64,000 bases of DNA, from the IMG/VR virus record IMGVR_UViG_3300036795_000124, positions 753 through 64,752 of that record; one strand, 5' to 3'. The translations under genes were made by a program, and so were the position numbers. The notes beneath the pieces are model-generated. The model was not told where the DNA came from. It did not search any database and saw only the letters and a program-made list of their open reading frames with translations. This document shows positions 41 through 13,526 of the stretch, one piece after another. Every line of letters begins with the position of its first letter. Position 1 is the first letter of the stretch. Source of the DNA: a virus.

Positions 41-649
41 TTGCACGATCGGGTGCAACATTGGCGGGATATTCCCGATGATCTGCGAAGCGGTTGGCGT
101 CCCGTTTATGATCCAGAGGCGGCGGCCGTCGCTGCCGCTTTGATCGCTGAACAAAAGAAAATGGCGCCCGACGGGGCCATCGCGGAATGGCTCATGCGGC
201 TCAATGATGCCGTTGCAGCCAATTTAGAACCGGAACAGCTGGCGCGTCGCGTCAGTGTCACCGTCAACGTTCTTGGCGAAGATCTTCCAGCCTATTGCTG
301 GACAAACGAAACATTCAAGCTGGCATCACGGCGATTCAAATGGTTCCCGACGGTCGCCGAATTAAGCGATCTTTTAGAACCGATAAAAGTCGAACGTCAA
401 CAGACGATCGATCTGATTCTGCGGATGTCCCAGCGCGCGATCTCAGATCGGATCGAGGGGGGCGTCGAATCTAAAACCCCCTACCCAGTCATACCGGCAC
501 CGCCCGGGACACCGGCGCCGCATTTTGATCCAAAGACGACGTTCCGGACCGAGCCCGGCGTCGAATCTATAATCCAAAAACCTATACGCACGGTCGAGGA
601 ACAACTCGCCTCACTTGGATTCGCATCAGATGGGAAGACACCGCTATGA
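41..649 (+). CDS. Phage protein, possibly a replication accessory (helicase-loader-like)
   Basis: 202-aa ORF with a WFPTVAEL motif resembling phage helicase-loader-type proteins; ATGA overlap with the next gene; start uncertain near the window edge. Confidence 0.45.
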   Translation: MHDRVQHWRDIPDDLRSGWRPVYDPEAAAVAAALIAEQKKMAPDGAIAEWLMRLNDAVAANLEPEQLARRVSVTVNVLGEDLPAYCWTNETFKLASRRFKWFPTVAELSDLLEPIKVERQQTIDLILRMSQRAISDRIEGGVESKTPYPVIPAPPGTPAPHFDPKTTFRTEPGVESIIQKPIRTVEEQLASLGFASDGKTPL

Positions 650-12486: not shown

Positions 12487-12798
12487 TTACGCGGCGGTTT
12501 TCTTGTTCGTGTTGCTGTTGGCCGGTTTCTTCGCGACGGGCTTCTTCGCCCTCGCGATCTTCGGCTCGAAGCGATAGCGCTTCAATCCATCGTCGGTCTT
12601 GCTGCCGTCGATGATGATGAGCTTGAAACCGAAGCGATCGGCGATGCGCTGCAACGACCACGAATTATGCGGCGTGACGCCGCCGGCCTTCTCCAGCAAT
12701 TTCGCGGCGGTCAATCCGTTCTTCGCCTGCAACGCGATGCAAACGATGGCGGTCTGGCCGCGCGGTTCGCGATCGGTCGTGCTGGTGATCTGTGCCAT
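12487..12798 (-). CDS. Small basic DNA-binding-like protein (DUF3489-like), first gene of the leftward operon
   Basis: wHTH-like core ending DDGLKRYRF, Lys-rich tail. Confidence 0.55.
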   Translation of the reverse strand: MAQITSTTDREPRGQTAIVCIALQAKNGLTAAKLLEKAGGVTPHNSWSLQRIADRFGFKLIIIDGSKTDDGLKRYRFEPKIARAKKPVAKKPANSNTNKKTAA

Positions 12799-12814
12799 TG
12801 TTTTGGTGTCCTCT

Positions 12815-12862
12815 GGTTTCGCCCATACCGGGGCTCATCGGGTCGGCTGATTGCCGACGACC
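12815..12862 (-). ncRNA. Candidate type III hammerhead ribozyme
   Basis: GGUC/GUCGGC-AAUCA-GCCGAC-CCGAUGA-GCCC-CGGUAU-GGGC-GAAA-CC; core intact except U4C; stem III only 3 bp. Confidence 0.65.
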
Positions 12863-12927
12863 GCGTTGCAACGGCATTCTGTGATGAATGCTGCCGCAAC
12901 GCTGTTTTGGATTAACAGAGGAGGACA

Positions 12928-12944
12928 CACCAATTCTGATTCAC
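12928..12944 (-). repeat. 17-bp element, copy 2, in the putative leftward promoter
   Basis: Exact inverse of 3215-3231; lies 2 nt downstream of a TTGACA on the minus strand. Confidence 0.8.
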
Positions 12945-13526
12945 GATGTCAAAGACTTCGCAACGACTCCGAACATCCCGCAACGCATGCAAGGAAGACG
13001 TTTTCGCTGGAATTGATCGGCCTTGCAGGCAGTGCCATGGTGGCACGAGCGATCGATTCAATGCGGAACATCTGTAGCTGCATCAGCGGCGTCATCACGA
13101 CGGCGGCGGATGGCATGAGAGGCGGAATGGCGGATGTGATTGTCGAACAGCGGCGGGAGGCGGCAATGATCGGAATGCGTGACGCAGTGTTTGCATCCTG
13201 CCTCGTTGGCAGATCGGCAGATCGTGGGGATGCGGCCCGTGGGCCAATACGGCGATCGATCGATCGCTACGCGGGAACATTGCCATGTCCCTGCACACGC
13301 GCGGTGGAACGCGTCATGTGCGTCAGATGAAATTGAGAAAGAACATGGATATCAACGTGTTATCCCGATATCCGACACACATCGTAACGGCGTGGCACCC
13401 CGGCGCAAGTCGGCAATTCCGCTTGGGTAATCAACAGCTTACAGGGCCTCGCTGCGCATCCGTGGCGATCTCCGCGCGATTCCGCGTCAATTCCGTTTCA
13501 CACAGCGAAACCCCCGGAGGACGCGC

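Follow-up and report, generated by a model that had tools for sequence, protein, structure and literature searches.

In this work, we have analysed a 48-nucleotide RNA motif located directly before the first gene of the leftward early operon of a soil-metagenome phage. The motif is probably a genuine type III hammerhead self-cleaving RNA heading that operon and carrying a natural U4C core variant (C instead of U at core position 4); we put the probability of this reading at about 0.7. As far as comparison of sequences can tell, it is supported by homology, synteny and selection. The kind of element is already known and the instance is new, and its notable feature is the conserved C4 core. The window, by which we mean the whole stretch of 64,000 nucleotides that was analysed, belongs to a complete 70.6-kb IMG/VR virus record with direct terminal repeats, and the sequencing runs that contain its DNA are soil metagenomes. 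The features on which the argument turns, in window coordinates, are these:

12815-12862, minus strand: putative type III hammerhead, U4C core variant (sequence, descriptor match, R1 model, homologues with C4)
12840, minus strand: core position 4, with C in place of the near-universal U (the same C in L176, L180/L188, L181, L191 and L194)
12863-12902, minus strand: long hairpin adjoining the 5' side of the hammerhead (predicted fold, inverted repeat I4, leaders of sister phages)
12805-12814, minus strand: Shine-Dalgarno (SD) motif AGAGGACACC of the first leftward gene, beginning at the base next to the hammerhead
12487-12798, minus strand: first leftward gene, 103 aa, with its ATG at 12798 and no family match
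12915-12934, minus strand: 20-nt block ATTGGTGTGTCCTCCTCTGT, with the same letters in the window and in three sister leaders (alignment)
12946-13077, plus strand: small rightward ORF, 43 aa, whose start ATGTCAA is kept in sister phages

Structure of the element

Re-reading of the sequence bore out, base for base, the type III hammerhead layout that a preliminary description had proposed for minus-strand positions 12862-12815. Three base pairs, GGU/ACC, the A15.1-U16.1 pair included, make up the open stem III; its GGU occupies 12862-12860, with U16.1 at 12860, and C17 follows at 12859. Stem I (GUCGGC/GCCGAC, 6 bp, 12858-12853 and 12847-12842) is capped by the loop AAUCA, and stem II (GCCC/GGGC, 4 bp, 12834-12831 and 12824-12821) by the loop CGGUAU. 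The core strand C3 C4 G5 A6 U7 G8 A9 lies at 12841-12835, and stem II is followed by G12 A13 A14 A15.1 at 12820-12817 and by the final CC at 12816-12815. The element thus has the three helices of a type III hammerhead, with stems I and II looped and stem III formed by the 5' and 3' ends. It also has G12 A13 A14, the A15.1-U16.1 pair, the required G10.1-C11.1 pair (12834 and 12821) and a base other than G at position 17. The sole departure from the consensus C3 U4 G5 A6 N7 G8 A9, in which N7 is free, is the C at position 4; this C at 12840 is also present, with no differences, in a second assembly of the probable source sample (run X1). Since position 4 is C, we class the element as a core variant and not as a canonical hammerhead, though a U4C hammerhead that is active in vivo has been reported from nature (PMC3088659).

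Other parts of the preliminary description stood as well. The U4C core and the short 3-bp stem III were found directly before the first leftward SD, the predicted scissile bond (12859|12858) is 60 nt before the AUG, and the long hairpin placed upstream of the hammerhead, from 12902 to 12863, is present in the predicted fold of the leader, which has z = -5.3 against shuffles. Sister phages have a hairpin of different sequence in the matching place, and also ahead of their internal hammerheads.

A descriptor of the hammerhead layout has a single match in the 64-kb window. Of 2000 first-order Markov shuffles of the window that were searched, 55 yielded a relaxed type III layout (position 4 being allowed to be U or C), and none yielded equally good stems. 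Across some 250,000 windows chance could yield a few such layouts, so comparative evidence was needed. Two other identities were rejected for the window element. The Rfam models gave no twister match in the window, and the parts of an R element (CUGAyCyGCGA, a hairpin and CCUGGryCAG) are absent at 12815-12902; this same R motif stands before other leftward SDs of the window operon.

Genomic setting

The leftward genes extend from about 12798 down to about 3400, and ahead of each stands the extended SD motif AGAGGACACC, which has nine exact minus-strand copies in the operon (2.5 matches would be expected by chance), each 3-6 nt upstream of a start codon. To the right of the hammerhead are genes for a ParB-like protein, an ABC-ATPase/GNAT protein and the large terminase. 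Relatives of the first leftward protein are encoded in L022 (61%) and L180 (51%); as a query it found none in viral_contigs or in isolated phages, and blastn of the hammerhead region against isolated phages gave no match. The small rightward ORF has no family match either; its start ATGTCAA and the upstream CTGATTCAC are conserved among sister phages, and its start region is only about 55 nt from the hammerhead.

A promoter scan of this divergent region found no promoter in either direction, and no terminator-like site was called at the hammerhead. The TTGACA at 12951-12946 of the minus strand was rejected as a -35 box, as it arises from reading the conserved rightward start ATGTCAA on the opposite strand, and as its spacing to the 20-nt block differs among sisters. 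Because the promoter scan was empty and TTGACA belongs to the start region of the rightward ORF, the word leader is used here for a position. The plus strand of the block at 12915-12934 resembles an SD for the small rightward ORF, while in the leftward RNA the block is complementary to the SD and start region (12797-12815), with which it forms about 13 bp in the predicted fold. In L188, L191 and L192 an extra hairpin lies between the SD-like block and the start of the rightward ORF. A 19-base pattern of the block had five matches in genome_contigs, which were discarded as unrelated SD-plus-ATG sites.

Curated models and a model of the phage family

The preliminary description had proposed an Infernal search with hammerhead models as a check, and the outcome was divided: the Rfam models were negative, and only a model built from phage relatives was positive. 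At the gathering thresholds, Rfam had no match in the window or in 22 related loci. The best Rfam signal was a 12-bit partial match to HH9, covering the core and stem II in a search of 301 bases, and RF00008 returned nothing at E<=10 on the whole genome, its cut-off of 48.5 bits not being reached by the window element. Canonical type III sisters, used as a control, score 37-47 bits with RF00008, which is also under 48.5, and gathering-level scans of loci that hold canonical hammerheads returned nothing. The negative Rfam result thus carries little weight, since canonical sister copies likewise fall under the cut-off; the Rfam thresholds miss this whole compact phage family, canonical members included.

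The family model, R1, is a covariance model of 15 type III hammerheads from other phage contigs, all with the canonical CUGAUGA core and with the window excluded; its source copies are recognised by RF00008 at E 1e-6 to 1e-8. R1 scores the window element at 41.7 bits (E 3.8e-10, both strands, 64 kb) and aligns to it end to end, over positions 1-53, with position 4 as the sole core mismatch. With the same model, scores range over 56-62 bits for canonical copies, 39.9-52.1 for other C4 copies and 15-31 for chance core matches that have no stem I. In the R1 alignment all six stem I pairs have changed on both sides; the set was picked with a pairing descriptor, which makes the percentage paired partly circular. 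R1 also gives a signal of 13.5 bits (E 0.13) at 12593-12632 of the plus strand, inside the first leftward gene and opposite to it, where both stems are absent, and we take this match as chance.

Relatives of the element

A search with the R-element pattern gave 39 IMG/VR loci, on which the layout descriptor was then run. Two of them, L022 and L025, have type III hammerheads built as in the window with the canonical CUGAUGA core, and that of L022, which is upstream of four R elements, is followed by the same ACAGAGGACACC SD as in the window. Position 4 was left open in a further scan, with the stem II and GAAACC segment, which gave more than 120 loci; 109 of its matches are preceded by CT, nearly all of these being well-formed type I or III hammerheads, and about twenty compact type III copies lie 0-25 nt ahead of an SD or ATG, several with a 3-bp stem III.

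The type III frame combined with the CCGATGA core was found at 13 metagenome loci. Eight have no stem I and lie in coding sequence, which is about the number expected by chance, and at the remaining five a well-formed hammerhead immediately precedes an SD and ATG. L176, L180 and L181, three of these five, share with the window C4 and the loops nAUCA and CGGUAn; relative to it, compensating changes have turned stem I into CGCGGC/GCCGCG and stem II into GCCA/UGGC. The leaders of these three and of the window are homologous, with the 20-nt block, a long hairpin that differs in sequence and ends at GGUC, the hammerhead and the SD in this order. These three were retrieved by a pattern that fixes C4, and their core identity is therefore given by construction. 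For this reason a second sample, independent of the RNA, was drawn: contigs encoding homologues of the ParB-like protein (L188-L194), fetched through ParB alone. Searches for the exact element in viral_contigs and for the subfamily pattern in genome_contigs found none. Relatives obtained through the terminase (L002-L005) and through a DUF932-like protein (L006-L010) were set aside as too distant, having neither the SD motif nor a hammerhead.

The sister phages share the divergent ParB/ABC-GNAT layout, their ParB proteins being 57-70% identical, and the ParB-like and ABC/GNAT genes diverge from a hammerhead-led operon in L022, L025, L176, L181 and L188-L194. In the sample drawn through ParB, R1 detects type III hammerheads that immediately precede the first leftward gene of L188/L189, L191, L194, L193 and L192. 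Position 4 is C in L188/L189, and also in L191 and L194, where the core reads CCGACGA; it is U in L193 and in L192 (348-398, minus strand), whose core is CUGAUGA and in which the best conserved pair of stem II is mismatched (C10.1/A11.1). The leader slot of L190 has no hammerhead and holds a twister-P1-like motif (229-293, minus strand; 27.4 bits, E 1e-3, cut-off 67.2) that contains GCCGGUCGCAAGCCCGG and has UGAA at the UAA site. Over nine leader slots (the window, L022, L025 and the ParB sample), four hold a C4 hammerhead, four a U4 hammerhead and one the twister-like motif. In L180/L188 and L181 a canonical U4 type III hammerhead is also present one gene further down. Conservation of the core in related phages, on which the preliminary description had staked its reading, was thus found: sisters keep a hammerhead in the matching slot, several of them with C4.

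The nearest relative, a 1719-nt contig from run X2 whose ParB is 89% identical, matches 12728-12852 of the window with five differences. None of the listed differences falls inside 12799-12852, and C4, stem II, GAAA and the SD look identical; this comparison reaches over two-thirds of the element from its 3' end, and GGUC and the first strand of stem I fall beyond it. The relative departs at 12852/12853, where 69 other letters take the place of the 32 nt from 12853 to 12884, with alignable sequence on both sides.

Conservation of C4

Six C4 copies were compared (the window, L176, L180/L188, L181, L191 and L194). Apart from the flanks, variation among them is confined to N7, to three pairs with compensating changes, of which stem I has two and stem II one, and to a single terminal base in each loop (the first of loop 1 and the last of loop 2). 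Comparison of the window with L194 and with the L188/L191/L181 group, the three deep lineages, gives 81-92% identity over the 48 nt of the element and 50-57%, which is about background, over the 48 nt on each side. The C4 carriers, whose ParB proteins are 57-66% identical, form no clade in a star-like tree. Variation at N7 and at paired positions, with none at the catalytic ones, is what would be expected under selection for a working hammerhead, although a purely structural role is conceivable. These comparisons indicate that the element is under purifying selection and that its slot interchanges with another ribozyme class. The presence of C4 with fixed loops across several deeply diverged phages suggests a stable sub-lineage and not a sporadic mutant, and our literature search found no description of a conserved C4 hammerhead lineage in phages.

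Hammerheads need a tertiary contact between loops 1 and 2 to cleave fast at the Mg2+ levels of the cell. Among the six C4 sequences the loop letters AUCA and CGGUA do not vary, and AUC/GGU pairs would be possible between them. The first base of loop 1 and the sixth of loop 2 (12852 and 12825 in the window) read A-U, A-U, U-A and G-C, and also G/A and U/U, and these two bases may form a tertiary pair.

Competing explanations

Several facts have to be set against the main reading. U4 is almost invariant in known hammerheads and U4C has been reported to lower activity considerably (PMC3088659), Rfam does not recognise the element, stem III has only 3 bp, no promoter was found and RNAfold prefers another structure. 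In all C4 copies this alternative lies 2.5-3.5 kcal/mol below the hammerhead fold; it pairs C16.4-G16.3-G16.2 with G5-C4-C3 (12839-12841) and bulges out the UC site, and the U4 copy of L022 has a weaker version of it. C16.4 (12863 in the window) is invariant in the six C4 copies though it has no partner in stem III. Such a structure might serve as an off-state in regulation, or it might be produced by the energy model, which takes no account of tertiary contacts.

It is conceivable, although we think it unlikely, that the element derives from a hammerhead and is catalytically crippled or very slow, its C4 form being kept for the fold and not for cleavage; it could then be a recognition site for a protein or RNase, control translation at the SD, or act as a switch in its extended stem I conformer. 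The considerable loss of in vitro activity reported for U4C (PMC3088659) speaks for this, and is countered by the natural U4C hammerhead that supports the infectivity of a viroid in vivo, as related in the same article. The alternative fold, in which C3-C4-G5 pair with the upstream C-G-G and C4 turns a G.U pair into G-C, fits a conserved structure, as do the unpartnered, invariant C16.4 and the two loops (AUCA and CGGUA), which are unusually conserved in the C4 copies. A constraint on the fold does not, however, account for the catalytic positions besides 4, all of which are kept where the flanks have diverged to background, nor for the variation of N7, the only free core position, which is a signature of selection for catalysis and not for the fold only. 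The other slots of the window are filled by R elements, which are not known ribozymes, and this too speaks for a structural role; in sister phages the leader slot itself holds canonical U4 hammerheads or the twister-like motif, which speaks against it.

That two ordinary leader hairpins (a terminator, attenuator or operator) happen to be flanked by hammerhead-like letters is hardly credible, and the comparative data already contradict it. The motif is short, large scans with a relaxed core give false positives, as seen in the 8 of 13 metagenome core-pattern matches that lack stem I, and no Rfam match is significant; yet none of the 2000 shuffles reached the observed quality, the family model gives E 4e-10, no terminator-like site was called, and at least five other phage contigs have, in the syntenic position, homologues with compensating stem changes. 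The same compensating changes are a sign of paired RNA rather than of a sequence bound by a protein, which bears on a further and very improbable explanation, namely that the conserved function is one of the DNA or of the plus strand (a promoter or operator, or the leader of the rightward ParB operon) and the hammerhead likeness is incidental. The region does look like a tight divergent control region in which no promoter could be placed either way, with the rightward ORF start about 55 nt off, and the C4 copies have no G.U pair that would mark the strand. The asymmetric core letters nonetheless fit a hammerhead on the minus strand only, and in every relative the element lies on the strand of the following gene, 0-25 nt before its SD, including the internal slots, which are far from any divergent region.

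Proposed role of cleavage

Under the hammerhead reading, stems I and II and the 3-bp stem III of the leftward transcript would fold around the core as the RNA is made, and the RNA would be cut after C17, between 12859 and 12858. The upstream RNA, with the long hairpin at its end, would be released with a 2',3'-cyclic phosphate, and the operon mRNA would be left with a 5'-OH end 43 nt before the SD and 60 nt before the AUG. The role would be one of processing or insulation, shared with the hammerheads, the twister-like motif and the R elements found at other gene junctions. As hairpin-plus-hammerhead units also precede internal genes of the sister phages, their general role is probably to sever or insulate each message from the RNA ahead of it, as synthetic RiboJ insulators do. 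We infer that cleavage of the C4 form is fast enough in the cell to be of use, and that the cut affects the stability or the translation of the mRNA; stabilisation of the mRNA 5' end by cleavage, which the preliminary description had suggested, is plausible.

A more speculative possibility, to which we give little credence, is that C4 is a selected setting, with slow or conditional cleavage timing the release of the leftward early mRNA. The sub-lineage would then be defined by C4 together with the fixed loops AUCA and CGGUA and the invariant C16.4, and the condition might be a metal, pH or the competing extended stem I fold, by analogy with the A6C variant of Bcep176. If transcription begins beyond 12946, the upstream RNA would be antisense to the translation start of the rightward ORF, and it would also carry the 20-nt block complementary to the leftward SD. 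Were this true, the ribozyme would be a regulatory part of a divergent phage switch.

Comparison with known ribozymes

Hammerheads in phage operons have been known since 2011, and to our knowledge almost none of them has been studied in its natural context. Insulators of the RiboJ type, engineered from a plant satellite RNA, are type III hammerheads placed in a 5' untranslated region, where they cut off the promoter-derived leader and leave a defined 5'-OH end; they have an added hairpin on the 3' side. The window element is likewise a type III hammerhead layout just upstream of an SD, but it is natural and its hairpin is on the 5' side. Like the RAGATH-type motifs and the R elements of the window operon, it stands immediately ahead of the ACAGAGGACACC SD of a leftward gene; a hammerhead core is present at 12815-12862 and missing from R elements.

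According to Perreault et al. 2011 (PMC3088659), the genes of prophages are often flanked by hammerheads, weak stems III are very common and rare core variants occur in nature. With the type III hammerheads of RF00008 and of prophages (PMC3088659) the window element shares the open stem III, the capped stems I and II and the GUC site, as well as C3, G5, A6, G8, A9, G12-A14, A15.1-U16.1 and G10.1-C11.1; it differs from RF00008 type III in having C4, a compact length of 48 nt, a strict 3-bp stem III and a score below every Rfam threshold. With the prophage hammerheads it has in common an intergenic position on the coding strand of a phage operon and a weak stem III, but it heads an operon and abuts the SD and does not lie between two genes.

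Two precedents make U4C a known and tolerated deviation. One is the U4C hammerhead of a viroid, which, in the account given in PMC3088659 citing Ambros and Flores 1998, "considerably decreases activity in vitro" and retains enough in vivo activity for viroid infectivity. It has the same core substitution and is also type III, but on that account it is a single variant of a plant RNA pathogen, whereas the C4 of the window is kept across deeply diverged DNA phages. The other is the natural phage core variant A6C of Burkholderia phage Bcep176 (PMC3088659), which is active and prefers Mn2+ over Mg2+ (Naghdi et al. 2020, PMC7151607). Both phage elements are intergenic and have one non-consensus core base, at position 6 in Bcep176, where activity and the preference for Mn2+ have been measured, and at position 4 in the C4 copies, which are known from their sequences.

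In this phage group one slot, before the first SD of the early operon, holds a canonical hammerhead, a conserved U4C hammerhead or a twister-like motif, and uncatalogued R elements fill such slots further down the operon. The group is thus a compact natural comparison in which the effect of cleavage at the 5' edge of a gene is directly testable. The conserved, natural U4C core also offers a system for asking whether variants of position 4 are tuned and not broken, and the C4 variant deserves a bench test, though the hammerhead kind is known.

Further hammerhead variants

Internal slots of two sister phages (L180, 3100-3165 and 4170-4243; L191, 718-753 and 1244-1280) contain type II hammerhead-like elements with an open stem II of 2 bp, composed of UC-GAAA, a long stem III hairpin, GUC, a stem I hairpin and CUGAYGA-GA. 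They score under the Rfam gathering thresholds, and R1 aligns to a part of them only.

Type III hammerheads with U4C and with unrelated stems and loops lie directly before an SD and ATG in the unrelated contigs L172 (1146-1192, minus strand) and L174 (896-943, minus strand); judged by these sequences, they are independent occurrences of the U4C core variant. Well-formed type I hammerheads with U4C are present in L106 (6516-6539, minus strand) and L163 (4769-4792, plus strand), and their close siblings have U4 (L127 for L106; L060 and L159 for L163). The sample to which L106 and L163 belong has about 3 C4 copies among roughly 110 hammerheads.
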